From positions 1 through 33,519 of the forward strand of contig JBDRZD010000013.1 in assembly GCA_039803745.1 (NCBI GenBank): a stretch of 33,519 nucleotides of DNA, given 5' to 3'. The number at the start of each line of letters is the position of its first letter. Within the stretch, counting starts at the first letter, position 1. The notes below the pieces were generated by a model. It was not told the origin of the DNA, ran no database searches, and saw only the letters and a program-made list of their open reading frames with translations. The position numbers and the translations under genes are program-made. The stretch is from a candidate division WOR-3 bacterium. Its GTDB lineage: Bacteria; Hydrothermota; Hydrothermia; Hydrothermales; Hydrothermaceae. Positions 7,709 to 32,244 of this stretch are shown here, piece by piece.

Positions 7709-7955
7709 CAGATAAAATTTCAAAATAATCACCTCTTTCTTTTTTTGAAATGCTTTTTTTATCAGGAACTTTTTTAACCTTTATCTTTATACTCCTTAAA
7801 GGAAAATCAAGAAAAATTATATCGCCTTCTTTAACTTCTACAGACCCTTTAACTTTCCTTTCATTTATAAAAACATAACCTTTTTCACAAGCCTTTTTTG
7901 CAACTGTCCTTGATTTAAGAATCCCTATTAAAAATAAATATTTATCAATCCTCAA
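7686..7955 (-). CDS. S4-domain RNA-binding protein (Hsp15/YabO-RqcP-like)
   Basis: MRIDKYL...KSRTVAKKACEKGYVFIN...KGSVEVKEGD; 89 aa; TTG start. Confidence 0.88.
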   Translation of the reverse strand: MRIDKYLFLIGILKSRTVAKKACEKGYVFINERKVKGSVEVKEGDIIFLDFPLRSIKIKVKKVPDKKSISKKERGDYFEILSDERKEII

Positions 7956-9204
7956 ATCCTTTTATTTCAACAAAAACATTCTTTTTAATCTTTTCAGTTA
8001 TTCTCTCTATTTCTTTTTTGAGTTTTCTCTGCATGATTAAATTTTTCAAATCATTCTGAATTTCCTCAAAGGAAGGTTTTCCACCTTTTTCATATTTATC
8101 AAGTTTAAATATATGATATCCGATATCTCCAAGAATTATTTCTGATATTTCATTCTCTTTTAATTTTTTTAAAACATTCTTTATTCTCTCATCCATTCCC
8201 CTTGAAGGTAAAAATCCGAGACTTCCACCTTCTTTTTTTGTTATAAAATCATCCGAGTATTTTAAAACCGCCTTCTCAAACCCTTCTTTTATTGCATACT
8301 CTCTTGCCTCTTTTGCTCTTTCAAAAGCCTTTAATGTATCCTCATTTTCAGGTAATGCACCTATAACAATTTGAGCAATCTTAACTTCATCTTTCTTTTT
8401 ATCAAGCACTTTAAATATATAATAACCATAATCACTTTCAATTGGCTCTGTAAATTCACCTTTTTTTAAGGAAAAAATTTTATTTTCAATCTCAGGAGGT
8501 AAAATACCCTTTCTAATATATCCAACTTCACCTCCTTCAAGAGCAGTTTTTCTATCATCAGAATATTTTAATGCTAAATAACCAAAATCACCACCACTTT
8601 TAAGTTTTTTATAAACTTCTTCAGATTTAATTTTTGCTTCTTTTAATTTTTCTTTATCTGGCAAAATCCTTATTAAAATATGAGAAATATAAAAACCCTC
8701 CTCTTTTTCAGGAATTGAATCTTTCTTCTCTTCATAAAATTTTTTAACTTCTTCAGGAGAAATTACAATTTTTGGATAAATATACATTGAAATATATTTT
8801 TGAATGAAAAGACTCCTTCTTATATTTTCCCTATAATTTTCCTTAAGTTTTTCAACTGTAAGACCTTCTTTTTCAAGTTCTTTAAAAAAATTTTCTTCTC
8901 CAATCTGATTTTTAATCTCCTCTATTTTATTATCAAGTTCTTTTTCAACTTCTTCATCCTTAACATTTATTAAAGTATCCTTTTTTGCCTCTAAATATAA
9001 AAGTTTTTCTCTTATGATTTCCTGAAGAATTTGCATCTTCACTTCCTTTTCTTCTTCAGGAGAAAAATCTTTACCTGATTGCAATTTGTAAAAATCAAAA
9101 ATCTCATCTATTTCAGAAAGTAAAACAACTTCCTTATCAATAACTGCAACTATTTTGTCTTTATATTGAGAAAAAATAACTATCAAAAATAAAAAAATTT
9201 TCAT
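7945..9204 (-). CDS. surA: SurA-like periplasmic chaperone / parvulin peptidyl-prolyl isomerase
   Basis: DKIVAVIDKEVVLLSE SurA N-domain and two parvulin domains (SHILI...LALKYSDD...GGEVG; KYSDD...GGSLG...GYHIFK); surA-pdxA synteny. Confidence 0.88.
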   Translation of the reverse strand: MKIFLFLIVIFSQYKDKIVAVIDKEVVLLSEIDEIFDFYKLQSGKDFSPEEEKEVKMQILQEIIREKLLYLEAKKDTLINVKDEEVEKELDNKIEEIKNQIGEENFFKELEKEGLTVEKLKENYRENIRRSLFIQKYISMYIYPKIVISPEEVKKFYEEKKDSIPEKEEGFYISHILIRILPDKEKLKEAKIKSEEVYKKLKSGGDFGYLALKYSDDRKTALEGGEVGYIRKGILPPEIENKIFSLKKGEFTEPIESDYGYYIFKVLDKKKDEVKIAQIVIGALPENEDTLKAFERAKEAREYAIKEGFEKAVLKYSDDFITKKEGGSLGFLPSRGMDERIKNVLKKLKENEISEIILGDIGYHIFKLDKYEKGGKPSFEEIQNDLKNLIMQRKLKKEIERITEKIKKNVFVEIKGFED

Positions 9205-9211
9205 AAGTTTA

Positions 9212-9265
9212 ATATTAAAGTTAAAAATGTAATGGTTGCAAATAAGTTTAAAATTTTAATATAAT
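9212..9265. promoter_or_regulatory. Back-to-back promoters for surA (-) and tRNA-Ser (+) sharing a palindromic -35
   Basis: TTGCAA (9236-9241) is self-complementary; TATAAT (+, 9260-9265) and TAATAT (-, 9217-9212) each lie 18 nt away. Confidence 0.5.
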
Positions 9266-9275
9266 TTATACCTTT

Positions 9276-9365
9276 GGAGGGGTGCCCGAGCAAGGTTTAA
9301 GGGGTCCGGCTCGAAACCGGATATCCCCTTATAGGGGAGCGTGGGTTCAAATCCCACCCCCTCCG
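9276..9365 (+). tRNA. tRNA-Ser (anticodon CGA), 3' CCA not encoded
   Basis: Acceptor GGAGGGG/CCCCTCC; anticodon stem TCCGG/CCGGA with loop CT-CGA-AA (9312-9314); long variable arm TCCCCT-TAT-AGGGGA; T arm GTGGG-TTCAAAT-CCCAC; discriminator G. Confidence 0.96.
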
Positions 9366-9366
9366 C

Positions 9367-9396
9367 TTGACTTAATTATACTTTATCCCTTAAAAT
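9367..9396 (+). promoter_or_regulatory. Putative sigma70 promoter for the tRNA-Trp-rpmG-secE-nusG-rpl-rpoBC operon
   Basis: TTGACT(9367-9372)-18 nt-TAAAAT(9391-9396). Confidence 0.5.
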
Positions 9397-9425
9397 ATAA
9401 AACTTAAATTAATTAAGCAAAAATT

Positions 9426-20575: not shown

Positions 20576-20994
20576 AAGAATATATAATTATAGAATGTCC
20601 ATTCTGCAAAACGAAATATAAATTACCAAAAGAAAAGGCAAAACCTGGTATAAAGGCGAGATGTAAAAAATGCGGAAATATTTTTCCAATTGCAGCTATA
20701 GAAGAAAAAAAAGAAGAAAGAAAATATGTTCCACCAAAGGACGAAGAAGAAAGAAAACTTTATGAAAAGGCAAAAAGGCTTGCAAGGATTCTTGCTAAAG
20801 ATATAACGAATTATTATAGAGAAAAATGGGAAATGGGATTAAAAGAAGGAAATTTAAAGGAAATCCTAAAAGAAGAAATCAAAAAATCGTGGGAATATTA
20901 TTGTGAGAAAATTCCTGAAGAAATAAGAAAAAAAACGAATTTCTTTGAAGAGGCTTTCAATGAAATAGTAGGAAAAGGTCAAAAGATATTTTAA
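20572..20994 (+). CDS. Zinc-ribbon (MJ0042-type finger) protein with a helical C-terminal domain; probable ATA start; absent from the ORF track
   Basis: Frame is open 20548-20994 and reads IEEYIIIECPFCKTKYKLPKEKAKPGIKARCKKCGNIF...AKRLARILAKDITNYY...FEEAFNEIVGKGQKIF (140 aa from 20572). AGGAGG at 20559-20564 lies 7 nt before ATA; the stop abuts the next ATG. Confidence 0.82.
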   Translation: MEEYIIIECPFCKTKYKLPKEKAKPGIKARCKKCGNIFPIAAIEEKKEERKYVPPKDEEERKLYEKAKRLARILAKDITNYYREKWEMGLKEGNLKEILKEEIKKSWEYYCEKIPEEIRKKTNFFEEAFNEIVGKGQKIF

Positions 20995-22260
20995 ATGAAT
21001 CAAAATTCAAAAGGTGAAGGAATCGTAAAGGGTTCCTTTTATATGATTTTAGCACTCGGAATAACAGGTTTTTCCCTTTTTTTATTTCAAATACTTGCAG
21101 CAAGAAAAATAGGAAAAGAAGAATTTGGGAAATTGAGCATTTTTTATTCCTTGTTTTTTTTACTTGCGGATTTTTTCTCTTCAGGATTCAGAGACTTCTC
21201 TTCAGTTGAATTATCAAAGATTTTTGATAAAGAAAAGTTAAAAGACTTTTTAAAAAAGTATTTTTCTTCCTTTATTTTTTACTCAATAGCATTTTATACT
21301 TTAATTTTCCTTTTATCTCCCCTTTTTCTTAAAAAATTCTTTGACAAAAATTTTGTAAATTTCTTTTTATTTTCCCTATGTTTTTTGTTTATGTTTTCAA
21401 CAATTTTTTTAAGAGGGGCACTCCTTGGATTCAGAAAAATAAGTTATGTTGCAATTTCAAATCTATCTTTTGGAATATTGATATTAATTTCAGGATTATA
21501 TTTTTATTTAAGGGAAAGTAAATTAATCCATTTTGAAATTTCCTATTTAATTTCTGTATTTTTAACATTTCCCTTAACCCTTTATCTTTTAAAAAGACTT
21601 ACCCCTTTTTATCTTTCATTCAATTTTAAAGAAATAATCCTTCCAAAAAATCCCCTGATGATGTCAAGTGTAAATTCAATCCTTGAAAGTTATTTTTATA
21701 TCGGAATAATTTTAATGAAAATAAAAAACGCGCCTTATGGAGATATAGGGACATTAAGTGCCATTTTAACATTTTTTCTTGGAATAAAAACCCTTTTTAC
21801 GGGAATATTCATTCCTTTGCTTCCAAATCTAAGTTATGTTCTTTCTTTAGAAAAAAAAGAAAAATTTTACAAATACATCAAATTGACCGGATTTCTCATA
21901 ATTCTTACTCTTCTTTTATTACTTATCTTATCTTTTACAATTTTACCCTCCTTATGGCAAATATTTTTTGGCAAGGGTTATAAATTCCAAAAGATTGACT
22001 TTGTTTTAATTTCAATAATAATTTCAATTTATTTAATGATAAGACTTTTATCAAGAGCATTCTTTGCAATAAAAGAAATAAATTATATATTTTTTACAAT
22101 CATAATTTTTTTAATTTTACTCTCTCTTGTTTTCTTTTTATTACCTTTAAAACCTTTAATTTCCATAGAAATCTCTTTTTTATTTTCAAGTTTCATAGTT
22201 TTTTTTCTCCTTTATTTAAGACTCAAAAATTTTTCCTTTAAAATCTCTTCTGGTGAATAA
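20995..22260 (+). CDS. Oligosaccharide flippase (Wzx/MOP superfamily)
   Basis: About 12 TM segments; N-terminal KGSFYMIL...QILAARKIGKEEFGKLS resembles the Wzx ARxLGxxxyG motif. Confidence 0.8.
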   Translation: MNQNSKGEGIVKGSFYMILALGITGFSLFLFQILAARKIGKEEFGKLSIFYSLFFLLADFFSSGFRDFSSVELSKIFDKEKLKDFLKKYFSSFIFYSIAFYTLIFLLSPLFLKKFFDKNFVNFFLFSLCFLFMFSTIFLRGALLGFRKISYVAISNLSFGILILISGLYFYLRESKLIHFEISYLISVFLTFPLTLYLLKRLTPFYLSFNFKEIILPKNPLMMSSVNSILESYFYIGIILMKIKNAPYGDIGTLSAILTFFLGIKTLFTGIFIPLLPNLSYVLSLEKKEKFYKYIKLTGFLIILTLLLLLILSFTILPSLWQIFFGKGYKFQKIDFVLISIIISIYLMIRLLSRAFFAIKEINYIFFTIIIFLILLSLVFFLLPLKPLISIEISFLFSSFIVFFLLYLRLKNFSFKISSGE

Positions 22261-22814
22261 CCTTTAAGGGTTAAAAGAATTGAGGAATAAAAAAGAAGGG
22301 CGGAAAGAGACTCCTTATTAAATTTTCTCTTTCTAATTATCTCAAAAATTTTTTTCTCAATATCTTTTTTATTTATTTTTTTACCCAATCTTTTCATCCT
22401 TTTTAAAATTTTTTCACATAAAAGCAAGGAAGGCATCGTAATATTCAAATCTTCTTCTTTTTTCTCTGATTCCCAGTATTTTAAAAATTCCCTTTTATTT
22501 TTAAATTTAACATTCTTAAAAACATGGGGATGTTTCCTTATTATTTTTTCCTTTAAATCTTTGAGAAGTTTTTCCTTTTTAAAGTATCCCTTTTCGTCCC
22601 CTATTTTTATCATTAAAAATAAACTCAAAATAGCATCCCCTATTTCTTCTTTAATTTTTTCATAATCCTTTTTATTTATTGCATCATGTATCTCATAAAC
22701 TTCTTCAAGAAGTTCTTTTTTCATTGAATTTAATGTTTGAACCTTATCCCATGGGCACTTTTTTCTTAAAACTTCAACAATTTTATAAATATCTTTAAAA
22801 TCTATTTTTTTCAT
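22212..22814 (-). CDS. mazG: MazG family nucleotide pyrophosphohydrolase
   Basis: LRKKCPWDKVQT, LLEEVYEIHDAI, EEIGD, KIIRKHPHVF, WESEK; the second MazG domain is degenerate; ATGA-coupled to the upstream peptidase. Confidence 0.92.
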   Translation of the reverse strand: MKKIDFKDIYKIVEVLRKKCPWDKVQTLNSMKKELLEEVYEIHDAINKKDYEKIKEEIGDAILSLFLMIKIGDEKGYFKKEKLLKDLKEKIIRKHPHVFKNVKFKNKREFLKYWESEKKEEDLNITMPSLLLCEKILKRMKRLGKKINKKDIEKKIFEIIRKRKFNKESLSALLFYSSILLTLKGYSPEEILKEKFLSLK

Positions 22815-25800
22815 CTCAAAACAGCAATCTTTTCAATTATCCTTTTTATTTTATTCCCCCATTTTCCTTCTATATAAAGAATATAAACACCATTTGAAAC
22901 TTTATTACCAAATTTATCATTTAAAAACCATTCAACCCAGTGAATCCCCTTTCTTGTAAGGGGCGGTCTTATAGGATCTTGATAAGGGTCAAATTCATAA
23001 ATTTCTCTTCCTGAAACTGTAAGAATTTTTATTTTTATTGACTCAAGTTCCTTTGTATTCTCAAAGACAATAACAACCTTATCTTTTCTTGCAGGATTTG
23101 GATAAATTCCTTTTAATATTATATCAAAGGGTTCAAATATAAAGAAGGAAATTGTTTTTGAAGAAAGATTGCCAAGACAATCATAAATTTTAATTTCAAG
23201 GGCATGAATCCCTTCTTTCAAATTCTTTAATTTATAACTTGAGGAAATCATCTTTGGGTTTTGAATTCCTTTATTAAAATTCAAACTATCAAATATATCT
23301 ATTCCGTCTAAAAGTATTTCTGGCTTTTCATAAAAAAGGTCAATACCACTTGAATCAGAAAAAACGAAATCAAGACTCATTCCTTTTTTAATTTTTGCAT
23401 TCTCTTCAATTTCTTCCCCATTTAAAAGACATTTTATTAAAGGACCTCTTTTATCCTTAATATAACCAAAGGAAAATATACCCGATTCCTCTGCTCTCCA
23501 CAAGGAAAAATCATTACCATCAATTCCTTCAATCTTATGCCATAATGAGTCATTCTTTGAAAAGATAAAAAGAAAAGTTGTATCAGAAATTGAATGAATC
23601 TTAAATAATATTTCAAAATCTTTTTTATTCATCAAATTTTCTATAATTATTCCTGAAAGAGTATCTATAAAATATATCCCCGGATTTTTTAAAAAATCTT
23701 TTCTTATTTTAAACTCAAAAATACCTGTATCACTCCTTATCTTAAAATAAGAAGAATCCTCAAAACTTATCCATTCTGTTGAGTCTTTAACAAATATATA
23801 AGGATTTTCAATCTCTATAATTAAAGAATTGTTATTCTCGTTTGATTCAGGAATTTTATTATCAAAATCCAGATTATAATAAATTTTTAATTTGCCAAAA
23901 TAAATAAAATCTTTTAAGTCTAAAAATAAAGTATCATTAAAAGAAGCCTTTAGACTCATACTATCAATTCTTGAAAAAATAGTGTCATCATTTTTTATTA
24001 TTTTAAAAATATACTTAAAATTTTCGGCGTCCCTTTCACCACCATTTATTATTGGAAATATAAGTTTTAAATTTTTATCCTTTATAAAGGGCAATATACT
24101 TATCTTACCTCCTTTAAGATCTGCCAACTCGGGAACTTTATATGTGAATGTATCTGTATAAAAGATGATCCCTGATGTATCTTTTATATAAAAGCAAATA
24201 GAGAAATTATTACCGGGATAAAGGGGACCTATTGGAATTTGTGTTAAAAATGTATCATGAATTCTTTCAAGGTTAATAAAAATAGGATTTGAAATTGAAT
24301 CACCATAATTCCATAAAAGGAAAATTGTATCTATGTTTCTAACTGATTTTATTATTGATTTCACATAATGAAAGGGAGTATCAATTAAAAGTGGTGGAAT
24401 AAATTCAACATTTTCAACAAAGGCACCATTCAATGAAAAATTTGAAAAGCCTGTCCCCTCTTTTTTTAAACTGGGATTATAAAAATAAATCCTTACTTCG
24501 CCCTTTGAATTAATTCCTGAATAGTTTATTATTGCAGTATCAACAAAGGGAAGAAGATTATAATTTTTAAATTTATAAAAAACTATACCTGTATCCTGAT
24601 GAGAAACTTTTATTCTTTCAAGAGCCTTTCCATATGGAATATTATAAGGATAAGAATATATAAAAAGAGAGTCATTGGGTAAAAGAGGATTTGGGAAAAC
24701 CTGCAAACTCTCTTTTTCAGGTAAGGGAAGTTTTAAAAGTGGATCACCTATTAAATTAAATGTATAATAAACATTTTTTGATTCACCTTCTAAATAGGGA
24801 ATGTAAAGTAATGTATGGAGTCTTGAAAATAAATGAATTTCACCCAATCTTTTAATACCCTCTTTAAAAAATCCCTTTAAAAATCCTTCTGGTAAAAGAT
24901 AAGTAATATTCTTATAATTTCCATATTCAGGCGAAGGTGAGGAGGCTGTAACTCCAGCATAACCTATTATTCCTCTTTGAGAAAGGAAAAGGGGAATTTC
25001 AAGAAAGGATTTACCAGTTTCAGGTGCATATTTTTCAGAAAAGCCAGCAAAATCACCAACCCAGCAACTCATCCCAATAAAAAATGGCAATTTTCTAAAA
25101 TTATAAATATCATACCATCTTTCAGCCTTGAATGTTTTGTTCCTGAAAATTGTTCTGAATGTTGTTGATGCATGACCTATGAATGTTATAACTAAACTTC
25201 CCTTTGAAAGTTCTGTTAAAATTTCAGGAAATGTATAGCCTTTAAAATTAGGGACAGTTGATAATGTAATTATTCTTGAATCCAAATAGGATAAACAATT
25301 TTCCTCTTTCAATTTTTTACAGGCATCATAAAAAATTTTTCCATCCTGCTCATGAACCTCTGTTAAAAAATAAGGAGATATTCTCCACCATCCATATTCA
25401 GGATTTTTTTCATATTCAATCAACTTATTTAAAAAGATATCACATTCATTTAAACTATTTACTGGAATTCTTCCAAGTAAAATATCAGGGAATGGGTCAT
25501 CTCCTATAAGAAGTGTATAATATATATCACTTGAGGCAGGTCTTGAATAATATACTGCCTGTCCAGGTGCTTTTGCAGGATATAAATATGTAGGAATAAA
25601 ATCAATACATTCATTTTCTATATTTTTAGGGTCATAAGAGGCGTCACCAAAAAGAATTACTACAAAAGGAGATGGATTCCATTTTATTATTGCATTTTTT
25701 AAGAATTCCCTGATAGCCTCAGGCTCCTTTATCCCATAGGAAAATTGATTGTATATATCAGAAATTTTAACAATTTTAACCCTATAACCTTCTGACTCTC

Positions 25801-27199
25801 TATAATTTTTATAAATCAAACATTTTTGATAGAATTCCTCTGGAGTGATTATCACAATATCTGCGCCTCCAGAAGGATTTATTATTTCCTCTTTTTCATA
25901 AAACTCAATTTTTTCAGGAATAAAAAATGTATCTGCAATCAAATAATATCCTGATGGAAAACTTTCAAGGGTAATTTTATATTCATAATATCCCTCTTTA
26001 AAATTTCCTCTTATTTTCCCAAATTTTATTGATGGATAAAAATAAAGAGAAACTTCTTTTTTCCTTCCTTTTTTTAAAACAATTGAAAAAGTATCAGAAA
26101 AAGGATAGATTTTATAGAAATGGGACAAAATTTCTGGTGAAAAGTTTCCCTCAATTTCAAAAAAATTTAAAATACTTGAAATATTACTGAAAGTTGAATC
26201 TTCCTTTAAGATTAAATAGTTGTTTCCGCTTTTTAAAAATTTACCGGGAATAAAAATTGAATCAATATAAGGTAAATTATCCTCCCAGATAAATGTATCT
26301 TCAAAAATTTCATTTATTTTTATAAGGGTTTTATGTTTTGGGAAGGGGACATCTTGCGTCTCAAAGGTTTCAAAGTAGAATTTAAATTTAAAAAGAGAAC
26401 CTGTATCTGGATTTTCTATTTTAAAACTAATTGTTTCAGGTTTTTGAAAAGAAATTATTTTCCAGTACCATAAATCAAGGGAATCAGTATTTTCCATTCT
26501 CATCTTTGTAAAATCCATAAATATTGAATCTTTTTCAAAATGGTATTTTTTCAAAAAGTATTTAATAACCTTTAGTGAATCAAAAGGAACCAAATTTTTA
26601 TTTATAAATCTCAAACCATTTTCCAAATCAAAATATAAAAAATAAGAATTAAAATCTGTATAGGGATGATGAAAGGTTTTCTCACCCGTTAATTTTTCTG
26701 CAATAAATTCAATATAATCACCATCATTAAATACTTCATCTTCCTCACCATAAAAATAAAAAGGAACCTCCCTTCCTCTATAAAAAAGATGTGCCTTTTT
26801 AGGATTCAAAGTATCTATATCTATACCTATTCTCCTTAACATATTCCCATAAATTCTATAAACCCCTTCCTCTTTTGTATATATTTTAATTGCGTGGTTG
26901 AATGGAATTTGAGGATTATCAAGTATTAAATCAATCCTATAAGAGAATCTATCAATATCCTCTTTATTCAAGATTATTTTTTCAAGAACATCCTTAAAAT
27001 TTTTATTAAAAGAGCCATTCCCTTTCTCACCCTCTATTTTTAAACTTTTAATTTCAGGAATATCAAAAATACCAACCTTTAAATTCCTTATCCATCCTTT
27101 TATCAAAGGTCTTATTTCTTTACCATTGCAAATAACTTTAAATTCGCCATCTGGAATTGCAAGAAGAGAATAGGAAAAAATAATTATTTTTAAAATCAT
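22811..27199 (-). CDS. C25 (gingipain) family cysteine peptidase, PorU-like sortase, with CARDB and C-terminal FlgD-Ig/T9SS-type domain
   Basis: KIYTKEEGVYRI N-region; DIVIITP...IYNQFSYG...AIREFL...LFGDASYDPK...LGRIPV; catalytic FIGH (His codon 25174-25172) and MSCW (Cys codon 25066-25064); NLIGDP; IPESNENNN (CARDB); YPNP...SGREI...NGVY...KIAVLR tail. Confidence 0.88.
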   Translation of the reverse strand: MILKIIIFSYSLLAIPDGEFKVICNGKEIRPLIKGWIRNLKVGIFDIPEIKSLKIEGEKGNGSFNKNFKDVLEKIILNKEDIDRFSYRIDLILDNPQIPFNHAIKIYTKEEGVYRIYGNMLRRIGIDIDTLNPKKAHLFYRGREVPFYFYGEEDEVFNDGDYIEFIAEKLTGEKTFHHPYTDFNSYFLYFDLENGLRFINKNLVPFDSLKVIKYFLKKYHFEKDSIFMDFTKMRMENTDSLDLWYWKIISFQKPETISFKIENPDTGSLFKFKFYFETFETQDVPFPKHKTLIKINEIFEDTFIWEDNLPYIDSIFIPGKFLKSGNNYLILKEDSTFSNISSILNFFEIEGNFSPEILSHFYKIYPFSDTFSIVLKKGRKKEVSLYFYPSIKFGKIRGNFKEGYYEYKITLESFPSGYYLIADTFFIPEKIEFYEKEEIINPSGGADIVIITPEEFYQKCLIYKNYRESEGYRVKIVKISDIYNQFSYGIKEPEAIREFLKNAIIKWNPSPFVVILFGDASYDPKNIENECIDFIPTYLYPAKAPGQAVYYSRPASSDIYYTLLIGDDPFPDILLGRIPVNSLNECDIFLNKLIEYEKNPEYGWWRISPYFLTEVHEQDGKIFYDACKKLKEENCLSYLDSRIITLSTVPNFKGYTFPEILTELSKGSLVITFIGHASTTFRTIFRNKTFKAERWYDIYNFRKLPFFIGMSCWVGDFAGFSEKYAPETGKSFLEIPLFLSQRGIIGYAGVTASSPSPEYGNYKNITYLLPEGFLKGFFKEGIKRLGEIHLFSRLHTLLYIPYLEGESKNVYYTFNLIGDPLLKLPLPEKESLQVFPNPLLPNDSLFIYSYPYNIPYGKALERIKVSHQDTGIVFYKFKNYNLLPFVDTAIINYSGINSKGEVRIYFYNPSLKKEGTGFSNFSLNGAFVENVEFIPPLLIDTPFHYVKSIIKSVRNIDTIFLLWNYGDSISNPIFINLERIHDTFLTQIPIGPLYPGNNFSICFYIKDTSGIIFYTDTFTYKVPELADLKGGKISILPFIKDKNLKLIFPIINGGERDAENFKYIFKIIKNDDTIFSRIDSMSLKASFNDTLFLDLKDFIYFGKLKIYYNLDFDNKIPESNENNNSLIIEIENPYIFVKDSTEWISFEDSSYFKIRSDTGIFEFKIRKDFLKNPGIYFIDTLSGIIIENLMNKKDFEILFKIHSISDTTFLFIFSKNDSLWHKIEGIDGNDFSLWRAEESGIFSFGYIKDKRGPLIKCLLNGEEIEENAKIKKGMSLDFVFSDSSGIDLFYEKPEILLDGIDIFDSLNFNKGIQNPKMISSSYKLKNLKEGIHALEIKIYDCLGNLSSKTISFFIFEPFDIILKGIYPNPARKDKVVIVFENTKELESIKIKILTVSGREIYEFDPYQDPIRPPLTRKGIHWVEWFLNDKFGNKVSNGVYILYIEGKWGNKIKRIIEKIAVLR

Positions 27200-28494
27200 A
27201 ATCCTATCAGTTTAATTCTTTCATTATTCTCTTGAATAAAAATTATACCATTTTTAAAATCCTTCAAAATTCTTCTTCCATTTATGTCAAAAAAAATCCC
27301 ATTTTTATAAACTTCTCTAATTCTTTTGATTTTTAAGATATTTGGTTTAAAAGCAAGATTTTCTAATTTACCAACATCTTTAAATTTATAATAAATTTTT
27401 GAGTAAAATGGCAAATTTAAACCCTTATCCCTTTCATCTGTCCAGAATAAATAAATTTTTACTTCTTTTTTTGAATAAAAAGAATGAGGAGAATAAGAGG
27501 GAAAAGGAGTAAATGTGAGTTTTTCTAACTCTGAAAAATTTGTGCCTCCATAAGAATAAATATAAAAAATATCAGATTCCTCACCGCATCCTGCTGTAAA
27601 AAAAACATGGACAAAACCAAGGGAATCACAGCATCCATTTATTTCATAAATATCTTTATATTTTAAAATTTCTCTATTTTCTATTATCTTACCTGTTAAA
27701 ATATCATAAATTGCAAAAAAAAGGCTTTCATTATTTGTATAAAATATAAAGATTTTTGAATTAAAATAAGGTAAAGAAAAGAAATATTTTATATCATCTC
27801 CGAGGGAATATAAGATGTTTTCCTTAAACACATCTTTCAATTTATTTAGAGTTATAAATGAATTTGATGAAAAGAATTTTAAATAAAATATATAAATTGT
27901 ATCTTTAACCTTTATTATTTGGGGAAAAATGTTATCCCCTCCTTCACTTATTTTTTTAATTTCAAAATAAAAGGGATTTATTCTTTTGGCATGGTATATA
28001 TTAAAAGAATTCCCTGAATCACTTGAAAATAAAAGATTTATTTTGCCGTCATTATCAAAAACAAAATTTAAAGACAATTCACTCCACTTTTGCGAGCCAA
28101 AATCGATTTTTTTAGGATATGTGAAACTTTCATAATTTGCAGGTGATTCCGAAACTTGATAATAAATTGAATAAGGTTCATATTTTTTTAATCTTTGATA
28201 AAATATATAAAGAAAATTATTCTTATCAGAGAGGATAACAGGATGCTCATCAAAATCTTCTCCATCATGGGGAATTTTCTTTGGACTCCATACACCATTA
28301 AAGGGTTTAAAATATATAAAATTTCTTGATTTTAACCAGTTTGGATTTTCATAACCTGATATTATTATATGAAAATCGTTTTCACATATTGAATTCTGAA
28401 AAGAATGGGGAAGATATTGATTTGAATTTGGATTTTGATCAAGGAGAAAATCACCTGACCATCCGTTTAAAAATAAAAATATTAAAATTATCAT
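27196..28494 (-). CDS. Secreted beta-propeller (BNR/sialidase-like blades) protein with a short T9SS-like C-terminal motif
   Basis: Hydrophobic N-terminus; repeated blade-like units (PVILSDKNNFLYIFY, FVFDNDGKINLLF, CDSLGFVHVFF, IYLFWTDER); tail FDINGRR...NGIIFI...IKLIGL. Confidence 0.62.
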   Translation of the reverse strand: MIILIFLFLNGWSGDFLLDQNPNSNQYLPHSFQNSICENDFHIIISGYENPNWLKSRNFIYFKPFNGVWSPKKIPHDGEDFDEHPVILSDKNNFLYIFYQRLKKYEPYSIYYQVSESPANYESFTYPKKIDFGSQKWSELSLNFVFDNDGKINLLFSSDSGNSFNIYHAKRINPFYFEIKKISEGGDNIFPQIIKVKDTIYIFYLKFFSSNSFITLNKLKDVFKENILYSLGDDIKYFFSLPYFNSKIFIFYTNNESLFFAIYDILTGKIIENREILKYKDIYEINGCCDSLGFVHVFFTAGCGEESDIFYIYSYGGTNFSELEKLTFTPFPSYSPHSFYSKKEVKIYLFWTDERDKGLNLPFYSKIYYKFKDVGKLENLAFKPNILKIKRIREVYKNGIFFDINGRRILKDFKNGIIFIQENNERIKLIGL

Positions 28495-29363
28495 ATTTTA
28501 TTAAAGGTTAAAGAAATTGAATGAACAACCCCTATTACATTCTTTTTAAATCCATAATCAACATCAAAAAACTTAAATTTTAAACCTATACCAATTGAAA
28601 AATAATCAAAGTATAAAAAACCAATTCTTAAAAATAAAGTTTCAAAAAAGGAAGATTCAACACCAAAAGAATTGTATAAATCATAGTCATAAAAAGTATT
28701 TGAAAAAATTTTTAAATTTAAAAAATTGAAACTCTTTGAATAACAGAATCCAAAATGATATGCAGGACTCTCCTCTCCCCTTTCCCTATCTCCCCATGAA
28801 ACCTTTGTCCCTCCTATATCCTTTAATACAAAACCAAAATAAAAATTGCCAAATTTTGTAAATTTAGAATATCTTGTTCCAAAATCAAAACCTATCCCTT
28901 TACCTTTTGCTTCAAGCATTTTTTGGTTTATAATTTTAAAATTAATGCCAAAGGGAAATTTTTTATGGGAAAAATTTAAAAGGAATGCCCTTTGTGAAAA
29001 ATCAAAATATTTTTCAGGAGGATAAAAATTTGTGTCACCGGGTTCAATCTCCTTTGAATAAAATGGAATATCAGGTATATTAAGGATTAAAAAACCAGAA
29101 GAAAGATAAATTTTTTTAAATAAGGGTAAACAAAAACCAAGATAATTGTATTCCATAATTCCATCAAAGGCATAAGATTTATTTAACATAATTGAAAAAT
29201 TATCAGAAATGGCACAGGCAGGATTATACAAAGGTGCAGAGGAAGGAGATAAGAGAACTATATCTGAATTTGAAAGAGATATCTCTCTTGCCCCTGCTCC
29301 AAATTTTAAGAATTCAAGTGCATATTCTCCTTTTAAGAATAAGAAAATTAAAATAAATTTCAT
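28491..29363 (-). CDS. PorV/PorQ family outer-membrane beta-barrel protein
   Basis: EFLKFGAGAREISLSNS...LYNPAC matches the FLxxxxGARxxxxG...NPA plug motif; amphipathic beta strands GINFKII, GFDFG, FLRIG, GIGLK, VDYG, HSISLTF. Confidence 0.85.
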   Translation of the reverse strand: MKFILIFLFLKGEYALEFLKFGAGAREISLSNSDIVLLSPSSAPLYNPACAISDNFSIMLNKSYAFDGIMEYNYLGFCLPLFKKIYLSSGFLILNIPDIPFYSKEIEPGDTNFYPPEKYFDFSQRAFLLNFSHKKFPFGINFKIINQKMLEAKGKGIGFDFGTRYSKFTKFGNFYFGFVLKDIGGTKVSWGDRERGEESPAYHFGFCYSKSFNFLNLKIFSNTFYDYDLYNSFGVESSFFETLFLRIGFLYFDYFSIGIGLKFKFFDVDYGFKKNVIGVVHSISLTFNKI

Positions 29364-29378
29364 AGGTTAAGTATAAAG

Positions 29379-30263
29379 TTAAAGAAATATTTCTTTCAAA
29401 GGCTCAATTTCCTTTATATTTAATTCTCTCAAAATTTTTTTTATTTTTCTTTCTGCCACTTTTATGTATTTTTTAAATTCTCTTTTATTTTTAAAAAATG
29501 AAAGATTTACATATGCAGCAAGTGCCTGCATAAGTCTTTGAACTCCTGTTAATTTGAGATAGAAATGAAAATCATTAAAATTTAAATTTATTTTATCTCT
29601 CATCTTTTCATAATAATGTTTTAAAAGTTTTTCTATAACTTTTTCATCTAAATCAACATAAGGGTCAAAAATTAAAGAGGCAAGGTCATATGTAAAGGGT
29701 CCTTTATGGGCTGTCTGGAAATCTGTAATTTTTATTTTTCCATCCTTTATAAAAATATTCTTTGACTGGAAATCTCTATGCATAAAAAAGTAATTGAGTT
29801 TTGAAATTTTTTCTGCAAGAAAATCAAAGGAATTTTTTATTTCTTTTTTAAATTTAATTTTAAGATAATTCATTAAATAAAAATTTTTAAAATATTCTGT
29901 TTCATAAAGGAGTTTTTCCTTATCAAAAATTTTTTTATAAGGCAATCTTAAATTCATAAAGCCTTTTATACCTTCAACCTGCATTTTCACCAAAAAATCA
30001 ATAACCTTTATATAATTTTTCTCTTCAGGACTTTTAAAAAGTGAATTTTTGCCAAGGTCTTCAACAATAAGAATACCATTATTTAAATCAAAATAATAAA
30101 TTTCAGGAACACCAAGATTTTTCTTTTTTAAAAATCTTTGAATTTTTATATAAGAGATAAAATCATTTGAAAAAGGGTTATCCTTTATCAAAACAAAACT
30201 ATCTTCATTTTTAATCCTTAAAAATATTCTATCAGAACCACCTATAATTTTTTCTATTTTCAT
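29379..30263 (-). CDS. APH-family phosphotransferase, AmgK-like (anomeric MurNAc/GlcNAc kinase)
   Basis: GGSDRIFLRI, VEDLG, HRDFQSKNI, DFQTA..GPFTYDLASL and QRLMQAL motifs. Confidence 0.82.
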   Translation of the reverse strand: MKIEKIIGGSDRIFLRIKNEDSFVLIKDNPFSNDFISYIKIQRFLKKKNLGVPEIYYFDLNNGILIVEDLGKNSLFKSPEEKNYIKVIDFLVKMQVEGIKGFMNLRLPYKKIFDKEKLLYETEYFKNFYLMNYLKIKFKKEIKNSFDFLAEKISKLNYFFMHRDFQSKNIFIKDGKIKITDFQTAHKGPFTYDLASLIFDPYVDLDEKVIEKLLKHYYEKMRDKINLNFNDFHFYLKLTGVQRLMQALAAYVNLSFFKNKREFKKYIKVAERKIKKILRELNIKEIEPLKEIFL

Positions 30264-30293
30264 TTGAAAGTCAAATTAAAAATTATTTATAAT
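30264..30293 (+). promoter_or_regulatory. Putative sigma70 promoter for the PHP hydrolase gene
   Basis: TTGAAA(30264-30269)-18 nt-TATAAT(30288-30293); purine-rich AAGGGGA precedes ATG 30322. Confidence 0.5.
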
Positions 30294-30321
30294 ATTAAAG
30301 TAAAATAAAGAAAGGGGACAA

Positions 30322-32244
30322 ATGAAAAATGGATGTGTAATTTTAATTTTATTGAATATAATTTATGCAAGGATTCCCCTTGAGAATGACTTAATAATTT
30401 ATAAAGGAATAAAAACTTCGGGTGAAAAAGATATTATAATTGATTTTATTTCTCCTTTCAATTTCAAAAAAATATATTTAAATATTGAAGGAATAGAAAG
30501 TTTTGAATTATTTTTAAATGATAATTTTCATGGAAAATACAATTCAAATAGTTTTTACCATACAATAAATTTAAAAAATAATTTAATTAAAGAGGGAAGA
30601 AATTCTCTTTTAATTAGAACTTATGAAAAAAACAATATAAAAATTACATTATGGGCAACAAGATATGAATGGTTTTATGGAACATTTCACATCCATACAA
30701 CATATTCTGATGGTCTATATACAGTGAGTGAAATACTGAATATGGTGAATAATCTTGGTGGTCATTTTGCTGCCCTTTCTGACCACAATACACTCCAGCA
30801 GTGTTATGATACAGCCTTCCATCAAACTGGAAATTGTATGCCAATAAGGGCAACAGAATGGACAACAAATGATTCAGGTCATACAAACATTCTTGGACCC
30901 GAAGGAAGCGAAGTTTTTGAAATTTCTTCAATTAAAAAAATGATTGATGATGCAACATACAGAGGTGGGCTTGTTCAGATAAATCATCCCTGCGATGAAG
31001 AACTTGGTTTTGGATGGGGTCATTATCCAAATGTTGATCCCGGAATAGATATAATTGAAATATTTAATGGACTTATATGGTTCCCAAAAAATGGGATTAA
31101 AACAGATGCTGAGGCTGTTGCATGGTGGCATAGTTTATTGTGTGAAGGAAAAAGAATAGCAGCAACAGGAAATTCTGATTACCATGGATATGAGCCAGGA
31201 GGTAATCCATTAAAAGCCCATTCAGCAGTTTATGCATCATCAAATCATCCTGATACAATTTTAAAGGCAATAAAATTTGGAAAAGTGATGATATGTGATG
31301 AAATGGAAGATTCAAGGCTTTATATATATGCTGATACAAATTTAAATGGAATAATGGATTTAATTATGGGAGAAAACATAATTATAAATTATGGAAGCAA
31401 GAATGTAAAATTTAAAGTTGAAGTTGAAAATTCAGATCTTTTTGATGAGTTAAGAATCTGCTCAAAACAAGGGATTATATACAGCACCACTTTATATGGA
31501 GGAAATTATGTTTATGAATTTGAAAAAACATTTTCCTCTCAGGATACTGATTTTATAAGGGCAGAAATTTTAAACTGGCTTGGATATTATGAATATGCAA
31601 CAAATCCAGTCTATGTTAATTATCCTGATTATGAACTTGGACCATGCAATTTATCTATTACATGGGATATTCCTGATACAATATGGAGTGGGGAAACACA
31701 AATATTTTTTCATTTGAAAAATTCAGGACTTGTCTCACCTTATAGGTTCAGTATTTTTGCAATGGTTGACACAAATGAATTTTATATAACAGAATATCAA
31801 AACGCAGGTCCTGGAATAGGAGAAGTTATACATATTCCCAATTTTTATGGATATGAACTCATTGAATGGAAAGGTGGTTTTCCTTATTCTGTAAGACTTT
31901 CACCAGATACAGAATTTTCATACTGGCTTAAATTGGTTCCTAAAACAAATGGTATAAAAAGTATCTATACGAGAGCATATGCAGATGATAGACTCTTTAT
32001 AATAGATAAAGAACCTGATACAGGATTTATAGGTCCTGATGGAGAAAGATGGTATAAGATAGATATTTATGCAGTAAATATTAAAGAAGTTAAAAAAGAA
32101 AATAAAAATAAAGATTTAAAATATTCATTAAAGATATTTGATGCTTCAGGAAGATTAAGAAAAGACAGTTTTAAAAGGGGAATATACTTTCTTATTCCAG
32201 AAAAGAGAGTAATAAAAAGCAAAAAGTTCATAGTAATAAAATAG
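30322..32244 (+). CDS. Secreted PHP-domain metallohydrolase (CehA/McbA-like) with a short T9SS-like C-terminal motif
   Basis: HIHTTYSDG, SDHNT, EW...GH, INHP, EIFNG, GNSDYH metal ligands; signal peptide ending IYA; tail IFDASGR...RGIYFL...KKFIVIK. Confidence 0.85.
   Translation: MKNGCVILILLNIIYARIPLENDLIIYKGIKTSGEKDIIIDFISPFNFKKIYLNIEGIESFELFLNDNFHGKYNSNSFYHTINLKNNLIKEGRNSLLIRTYEKNNIKITLWATRYEWFYGTFHIHTTYSDGLYTVSEILNMVNNLGGHFAALSDHNTLQQCYDTAFHQTGNCMPIRATEWTTNDSGHTNILGPEGSEVFEISSIKKMIDDATYRGGLVQINHPCDEELGFGWGHYPNVDPGIDIIEIFNGLIWFPKNGIKTDAEAVAWWHSLLCEGKRIAATGNSDYHGYEPGGNPLKAHSAVYASSNHPDTILKAIKFGKVMICDEMEDSRLYIYADTNLNGIMDLIMGENIIINYGSKNVKFKVEVENSDLFDELRICSKQGIIYSTTLYGGNYVYEFEKTFSSQDTDFIRAEILNWLGYYEYATNPVYVNYPDYELGPCNLSITWDIPDTIWSGETQIFFHLKNSGLVSPYRFSIFAMVDTNEFYITEYQNAGPGIGEVIHIPNFYGYELIEWKGGFPYSVRLSPDTEFSYWLKLVPKTNGIKSIYTRAYADDRLFIIDKEPDTGFIGPDGERWYKIDIYAVNIKEVKKENKNKDLKYSLKIFDASGRLRKDSFKRGIYFLIPEKRVIKSKKFIVIK

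Follow-up and report, generated by a model that had tools for sequence, protein, structure and literature searches.

Ultra-short export leaders on periplasmic and outer-membrane proteins of a candidate division WOR-3 bacterium

Sec signal peptides typically comprise 18-30 residues. The window, as we call the whole stretch of 33,519 nucleotides analysed here, corresponds to contig C13 in the 1.67 Mb genome (29.6% GC, 93% complete) of a candidate division WOR-3 bacterium, and it encodes five proteins whose N-terminal export leaders had been described as unusually short in an earlier note on this DNA. Leaders of 7-13 mostly hydrophobic residues, as compared to the usual length of about 20, strain the textbook rules of signal build and cutting. 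We confirm that short leaders occur genome- and phylum-wide, and we propose, from sequence comparisons, where they may be cleaved and how they could function. Members of the 90% protein clusters shared with window proteins are labelled 'candidate division WOR-3 bacterium', and a cultured WOR-3 strain is portrayed in PMC12285271 as a thin Gram-negative rod with two membranes.

Results

Five leaders in the window

The minus strand of the window codes for a SurA-family periplasmic chaperone of 419 amino acids (7945..9204), which matches Pfam SurA_N and two Rotamase domains and, below the cut-off, PRK10770 (E 1.8e-42). Its leader, as placed by family models and orthologues, consists of the 12 residues MKIFLFLIVIFS (9169..9204) and is followed by Gln13, the presumed +1 residue. 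The closest upstream in-frame stop lies at 9256..9258, leaving 17 free codons, and a -10-like TAATAT (9212..9217) is found 7 nt 5' of the ATG. On the same strand, family searches identify a PorU-like C25 peptidase of 1462 amino acids with a C-terminal domain (CTD) of the type IX secretion system (T9SS) (22811..27199). Its 14-residue leader MILKIIIFSYSLLA (27158..27199) is preceded by a stop at 27212-27214 with four free codons, and its start overlaps the upstream gene in an ATGA. That gene (27196..28494, minus strand) encodes a 432-residue protein that had been called a propeller, an identity we could not uphold as the protein has no Pfam or NCBIfam match; it belongs to no recognised family, its C-terminus appears CTD-like by eye and its export is suggested by the operon context. 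The uncharged leader MIILIFLFLN(G) of 10-11 residues (28462..28494) is confined by a stop at 28498-28500 (one free codon) and again begins in an ATGA overlap. The fourth minus-strand protein (28491..29363, 290 amino acids) resembles outer-membrane barrels of the PorV/PorQ family (NF052325, E 1.6e-21; NF033709, E 2.1e-18, both below cut-off). According to orthologues, its leader is MKFILIFLFL(KG), 10-12 residues (29328..29363), with a stop at 29367-29369 (one free codon) and a -10-like TATACT 6 nt 5' of the ATG (29370..29375). For both Por proteins the suffix '-like' is apt, since the family matches stay below the curated cut-offs. On the plus strand, a CehA/McbA-like (PHP) metallohydrolase (30322..32244; NF038032 above cut-off) starts with the 16 residues MKNGCVILILLNIIYA (30322..30369), behind a stop at 30301-30303 with six free codons and a Shine-Dalgarno-like AAGGGG at 30312-30317.

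All five N-termini given in the earlier note were found on the sequence as quoted, both ATGA overlaps are real, and the starts are indeed constrained. Stops 1-6 codons upstream mean that the leaders of the PorU-like, 432-residue, PorV-like and PHP proteins cannot reach normal length with any start codon. The 17 codons upstream of surA are polar and include three ATT; in SurA orthologues the stop comes one codon (same genus) or three codons (same family) before the ATG. Profile alignment places residue 12 of SurA at position 22 and residue 13 of the PorV-like protein at position 24 of their family models, the matches to which start 10-11 positions early. Genome-wide, TAnnnT boxes peak 6-9 nt before the starts of 900 genes that have no Shine-Dalgarno sequence (73 at 6 nt as against 11-34 for positions 10-24). 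This suggests many leaderless mRNAs in this genome, with the window genes starting at 9204 and 29363 probably among them.

Four of the five leaders are ultra-short, as had been claimed; that of the PHP protein, with its n-region MKN and an I-Y-A site, is at the low end of normal. A literal Ala-x-Ala is absent from four of the five and not, as stated before, from three. However, each leader offers a possible site with a small residue at -1 and an aliphatic one at -3 (IFS-Q, LLA-I, LNG-W, LKG-E, IYA-R), so that the window leaders alone testify to short signals and not to an odd peptidase. The 432-residue protein has no Lys or Arg in its leader and the other four have one each. No lipobox Cys follows the core in any of the five (Cys5 of the PHP protein precedes it), and the Tat motif S/T-R-R-x-F-L-K is absent from all of them. 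TatC and one Tat-like substrate are encoded elsewhere in this genome. With 7-11 residues, the cores fall below the approximately 17-22 hydrophobic residues of an uncleaved signal anchor.

Short leaders across the genome

Genes were called with our own script (1543 ORFs genome-wide). A hydrophobic stretch is present at the start of 21.4% of the 1006 proteins free of transmembrane segments, versus 0.8-1.3% at four internal offsets. After removal of Cys-containing leaders, we assigned to the short-leader class those in which the first Asp, Glu, Lys, Arg or Gln is reached within 13 residues; 78 soluble proteins have such a hydrophobic leader of at most 13 residues and 125 a longer one. Lys and Arg are missing from 40 of the 78 short leaders, occur once in 36 and twice in 2, as compared to two or more in 78 of the 125 longer leaders. 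The same shortness is seen in a set chosen independently of the N-terminus: T9SS-CTD matches (TIGR04183) number 44, of which 31 are in 5'-complete ORFs and 29 of these show a hydrophobic start, with 12/29 leaders at no more than 13 residues and a median of 15. This T9SS-like cargo set is sizeable and, together with the PorU-like and PorV-like genes (window 22811-29363), occurs in a phylum outside Bacteroidota. Proteins that have to leave the inner membrane are represented as well. The main Omp85 protein (BamA) starts with MQNFLLIFFLL right behind a stop (0 free codons), both TolC proteins are short-leadered (11 and 13 residues, one of them with one free codon), and one of three TonB-dependent receptors has a leader of 10 residues followed by Gln. 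Among lipoprotein candidates, 30 of 31 have leaders of 13-17 residues, nearly all with a basic n-region, and 11 carry a residue other than Ala, Gly or Ser before the Cys (Phe, Thr, Met, Tyr, Val or Leu).

The leaders could be an artefact of annotation, the true starts lying upstream at near-cognate codons or being reached by recoding, with leaders of normal length. One of 11 members of the SurA cluster is indeed called 30 residues longer, and 29 of the 78 short leaders are not capped by an upstream stop within 17 codons of the first charged or Gln residue. The other 49 are so capped, as are four of the five window genes and their orthologues within a few codons; the same start and the same protein length recur in several independent assemblies; -10 boxes adjoin two of the ATGs; and there is no sign of a hidden basic n-region, Lys and Arg making up 27% of the five preceding codons in short-leader genes and 27% in other genes. 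Upstream and near-cognate starts were rejected on these grounds, and we regard the artefact as hardly credible. The five leaders are no outliers in their genome either, and the abbreviated export signal postulated earlier is supported; that the short leaders are real export signals we consider very probable.

Two simple causes were discarded. Loss of deformylase, which would keep the N-terminus uncharged, is at variance with the Def, Fmt and Map motifs present. AT bias was rejected because genome G108 (31% GC) has only 1/27 short leaders and genome G019 (53% GC) has 9/18. The trait is independent of GC content; GC at third codon positions is slightly lower in the short-leader genes of this genome (0.175 versus 0.193).

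Distribution and export machinery

The trait reaches beyond the lineage for which it had been proposed and is phylum-wide, albeit uneven. For SurA we counted the residues preceding a conserved Asp at 79 loci, of which 12 without an anchor match were dropped (3 from the class of this genome, the window's own among them, then 2, 3 and, in the outgroup, 6); one own-class locus without its N-terminus had been excluded beforehand. The window protein has 15 such residues. Its own class has a median of 22 (n=26, minimum 12). [quoted passage not shown] In the sister family, about 8-9 residues precede the conserved motif of PorV-like orthologues, and stops lie 1-4 codons upstream; in most other families the motif is preceded by at least 20 residues. 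In samples of 114-200 kb from each of 13 relatives, the short-leader share ranges from 0/16 to 8/13.

LepB and SecY were identified by family search and SecA, SecE, SecG, SecDF, YajC, YidC, LspA, Lgt and Lnt by motif only. A LolA family search gave no match, though LolA-like ORFs were seen by eye. In the search for Ffh and FtsY, the SRP54 family gave nothing beyond partial P-loop matches in 41 genomes of the class, two of them covered in 3-4 contigs (best E 2.8e-7), while all 14 controls matched. A match to the ffh family was found in 0/46 own-class genomes, in 15 genomes of the second class at most once, weakly and not over the cut-off, and in 89/90 other WOR-3 genomes. The Ffh proteins of four relatives, used as queries, retrieved nothing from this genome. 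SRP RNA turned up in one of five genomes by a search so insensitive that an Ffh-positive genome was missed as well. The ffh gene commonly adjoins rpsP and does not do so here; as the two are not adjacent in four Ffh-positive relatives either, this neighbourhood is uninformative. Two WOR-3 classes are without detected Ffh, that of this genome and that of genome G081.

SecY has Arg at the position of E. coli Ser405, replacing the Ser of 'GGTS', and Asp at that of Ala197 (contig C8:25408-25431). Arg405 occurs in 42 of 46 genomes of the class, in 0/105 others, where four pattern matches proved to be Ser codons, and in 0/73 outgroup SecYs scored of 80. A salt bridge between Arg405 and Asp197 under the plug is possible. 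According to PMC11494458, the prlA changes L407R and I408N lie in transmembrane helix 10 of SecY, and prlA mutants let defective signals through. Of the components that had been proposed for inspection, SecY carries the Ser405Arg change, Ffh (like FtsY) was not found by the above searches, and the pocket of LepB looks ordinary. The secY gene stands in a short block rpsE-secY-adk-map-infA amid non-ribosomal neighbours (contig C8:23010-27117, a stretch partly masked), and the spc and alpha operons look broken up.

It is tempting to assume that the leaders shortened through loss of SRP, which would have left signals free to turn very hydrophobic and short. Short leaders make up 56/207 in ten genomes without Ffh and 4/69 in three with Ffh (Fisher p 8e-5, for kin that are not independent), and an AT-rich SRP-positive genome has 1/27. 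On the other hand, the SRP-positive genomes G075 and G144 have leaders of 8-10 residues, three SRP-negative genomes have only 1/18, 1/12 and 1/13 short leaders, and SurA leaders are shortest in the SRP-containing class, the SecY of which lacks the Arg. The latter means that neither SRP loss nor Arg405 of SecY can be required. From these sequences SRP loss is not the cause of the shortening; it is largely refuted as a necessary cause, and the assumption appears very improbable.

Positions 9276-20397 of the window contain tRNA-Ser(CGA), tRNA-Trp and an rpmG, secE, nusG, rplKAJL, rpoBC cluster without tuf. Such a cluster usually includes tuf and begins with a tRNA for Thr, Tyr or Gly, not Ser as here.

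Residues at the end of the core

Of 100 short leaders, 26 have glutamine as their first polar residue, against 4.2% expected (binomial p 4e-14) and 5/154 after internal hydrophobic stretches; the N-terminal Gln peaks after residues 10-11. In the 13 relatives, Gln follows 27 of 64 short leaders, a count that includes a false positive and a duplicate. The Gln is conserved among SurA orthologues as the leader contracts, 15-17 residues with a final Ala giving way to 7-11 with Ser, Ala, Phe or Val in last place. The genome also encodes a homologue of M28 type II glutaminyl cyclases (contig C7:38122-38940). Among proteins of solved structure, this putative enzyme of the Bacteroidetes type is closest to bacterial glutamine cyclotransferases (6QRO, E 1.5e-26); the plant-type family PF05096 has no match in this genome. 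The excess of Gln at the core end in combination with this homologue indicates that cleavage probably occurs at the Gln.

If Gln is taken as +1, the -1 position of 24 sites is occupied by Ala, Gly or Ser in 6, Phe in 5, Asn in 5, Met in 3, Thr in 2, Ile in 2 and Val in 1. Ala, Gly or Ser precede 14 of 27 Gln sites in the relatives, and the 7-9-residue leaders of two families mostly retain Ala or Ser at -1 (MVTLILA-Q, MLFFLLA-Q), a LepB signature. An atypical signal peptidase specificity, as assumed earlier, is not needed for the five window leaders, but is suggested genome-wide by the 18 of 24 Gln sites with another residue at -1 and by the 10 of these 24 leaders in which a canonical site is lacking. 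A second or remodelled signal peptidase was considered and rejected: LepB, with the catalytic Ser and Lys present, is the single S26 peptidase of this genome, its pocket changes are conservative, and Val144 is found in 30 of 32 WOR-3 LepBs whatever their -1 usage. The lepB gene directly follows the gene for a protease that looks HtrA-type by eye (contig C16:6948-9175).

Another membrane protease, of the rhomboid or RseP type, might cut the ultra-short class and leave the 15-20-residue class to LepB. The coexistence of two leader classes, the presence of rhomboid and RseP motifs and the existence of only one S26 peptidase agree with such a division of labour. However, rhomboid and RseP are ordinary housekeeping genes, orthologues with an unchanged +1 Gln grade from one class into the other, and no dedicated gene is seen near secY, secA, secDF, yidC or lepB; we hold this for quite improbable.

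Discussion

Proposed mechanism

The sequences establish how short the leaders are and that they belong to proteins which must be exported. We read them as genuine, probably cleaved Sec signals pared down to Met plus an Ile/Leu/Phe core of 6-10 residues, without the basic n-region and with most of the c-region gone. For the subsequent steps we propose the following model. As the class has no detectable SRP, SecA would engage the very hydrophobic core and hand it to SecYEG; E. coli SecA, as reported in PMC9192764, takes highly hydrophobic signals co-translationally and backs up when SRP is lacking. Arg405 of SecY, beside the prlA sites 407/408 and near Asp197, might conceivably lower the gate's demand on the signal. 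With little or no positive charge to hold it on the cytoplasmic side, the core could then move across to the periplasmic face and be cut at its end by the ordinary single LepB, with small -1 residues retained in some families and Phe, Met, Ile and Asn tolerated in this one. Finally, the type II glutaminyl cyclase homologue would convert an exposed Gln into pyroglutamate, in the fashion of the Bacteroidetes Q-rule. Lipoproteins may keep a basic n-region and 13-17 residues because they have to stay anchored for Lgt and LspA. In its general form (export by Sec and SecA, cleavage by LepB at the core end with relaxed P1, and pyroglutamate capping whenever Gln is exposed) we give this model a somewhat better than even chance. 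A more specific version, in which a PrlA-like SecY (Arg405, possibly paired with Asp197) of a re-tuned, SRP-free Sec system admits charge-free signals of 7-11 residues, and the cut is set by position (here about 10-11 residues from Met) and not by the (-3,-1) rule before the pyroglutamate cap is added, is put forward tentatively.

Several findings weigh against the model. By eye, about 6 of the 78 short-leader proteins are cytoplasmic false positives. The median hydrophobicity of short and long cores is practically equal (3.33 versus 3.36), so shortness is not offset by hydrophobicity within this genome. The class with the shortest SurA leaders, 11/17 at 16 residues or fewer, contains SRP and is devoid of SecY Arg405. 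Gln marks the end of no more than a quarter to a third of the short leaders. The cyclase homologue itself has a short leader, no lipobox and no ATG, GTG or TTG, but an apparent ATT start behind GGAGG. Canonical sites are found in 58/78 short leaders versus 72% of random 19-residue spans, which is no enrichment. The S1 and S3 pockets of LepB differ from those of E. coli only by the conservative changes F84Y, I101L, V132I, Y143F and I144V. Since PMC2259416, from which the pocket residues were taken, gives P1 as small in 99% of 107 E. coli substrates, a cut after Phe, Met or Ile by such a pocket is unexplained.

This difficulty disappears if the core targets the protein to Sec, the whole leader is pulled through, and SppA and periplasmic aminopeptidases trim it to the Gln, which is then capped as pyroglutamate. 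Such trimming accounts for bulky -1 residues despite an ordinary LepB, and an SppA-like protein and several M28 peptidases are encoded. A core of 7-9 residues is also too short for a stable membrane anchor, which favours trimming. Pyroglutamate has been proposed to protect from aminopeptidases (PMC10653852). Yet trimming provides no stop signal for the majority of leaders, which have no Gln, and does not explain why 7-9-residue leaders of other families, and Gln sites of the relatives, retain Ala and Ser at -1, in the manner of signal peptidase I (SPase I). We consider trimming as the whole of the processing rather unlikely. Either an ordinary-looking LepB accepts bulky P1 residues or trimming completes the processing, and the data are undecided between these two.

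Alternatively, the leaders may not be cleaved at all; they might tether periplasmic proteins to the inner membrane, in its outer leaflet, or be merely tolerated. The lack of enrichment of canonical sites and the 10 of 24 Gln-ended leaders in which no cut between 7 and 25 would fall at a canonical site would be in agreement with this. However, BamA, TolC, the PorV-like protein and a TonB-dependent receptor carry short leaders and must leave the inner membrane, and a sixfold excess of Gln exactly at the core end, together with a glutaminyl cyclase homologue, is sensible only with the Gln exposed. Retention of the leaders is accordingly judged improbable.

If the proposed model of SecA-dependent export and cleavage at the core end is true, signal peptides of bacteria can in nature have half the length that is generally accepted, do without a positive n-region and be cut after bulky residues. 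The minimal export signal and the role of the n-region would become testable with natural substrates, in a phylum with a cultured member. Standard predictors would probably miss much of the WOR-3 secretome, and two whole classes of free-living diderm bacteria would join the short list of those apparently living without SRP.

Comparison with known systems

In the mostly open-access full texts (main texts) that were searched, we found no description of ultra-short or minimal bacterial signals of this kind or of SRP loss in WOR-3, and the term 'signal peptide' is absent from the WOR-3 papers among them. SRP loss is described in PMC4758666 for Leptospira, Dehalococcoides and SAR86. As presented there, Leptospira has no Ffh, FtsY or SRP RNA and uses bulky residues (Leu, Phe) at the lipobox's -1 site. 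The apparent lack of Ffh and FtsY and the bulky residues before the lipobox Cys are shared by the genome studied here; thin cells are common to both groups, the WOR-3 isolate sy37 being 0.3 um wide (PMC12285271). In contrast to WOR-3, that account of Leptospira mentions no ultra-short SPase I leaders, and the loss has occurred independently in another phylum.

The E. coli prlA forms of SecY (I408N, L407R), as characterised in PMC11494458, resemble the WOR-3 protein in having a charged residue at the start of transmembrane helix 10, by the pore ring and the plug. The WOR-3 change is unlike them in being natural and fixed, in lying at 405 and not at 407/408, and in its possible pairing with Asp197; it is known from sequence, and the SRP-positive class, likewise short-leadered, does not have it.

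The Bacteroidetes Q-rule, according to PMC5837995 and PMC10653852, places Gln at +1 of a cleaved leader, where it is then cyclised. WOR-3 shares with it a Gln after the leader far above background, with the core end taken as the cut, and a gene for a putative type II glutaminyl cyclase. It differs in that Gln follows only about a quarter of the leaders, versus about 71% for Bacteroidetes in PMC5837995, and in that the cyclase homologue has no lipobox. WOR-3 is not among the groups named for the Q-rule in the relevant passages of these two papers.

The closest relative of the short leaders is the general Sec/SPase I signal, which PMC5875014 describes as tripartite with n-, h- and c-regions. Both have an unbroken N-terminal hydrophobic core, carried in WOR-3 by periplasmic, outer-membrane and T9SS proteins, a complete Sec system with one LepB is encoded, and many leaders end in Ala, Ser or Gly. 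Unlike the classical signal, the WOR-3 leaders total 7-13 residues and not about 18-30, have essentially no c-region and, with no Lys or Arg in 40 of 78, no regular positive n-region; in this family, Phe, Met, Ile or Asn often occupies -1. Small residues at -3 and -1 are found loosely in the five window leaders, and at -1 in a minority of the Gln-marked sites of this genome (6/24) and about half of those of the relatives. The short leaders resemble a Sec/SPase I signal that ends according to the Q-rule; they depart from it in n-region and length, and may thus represent a variant of that signal type.

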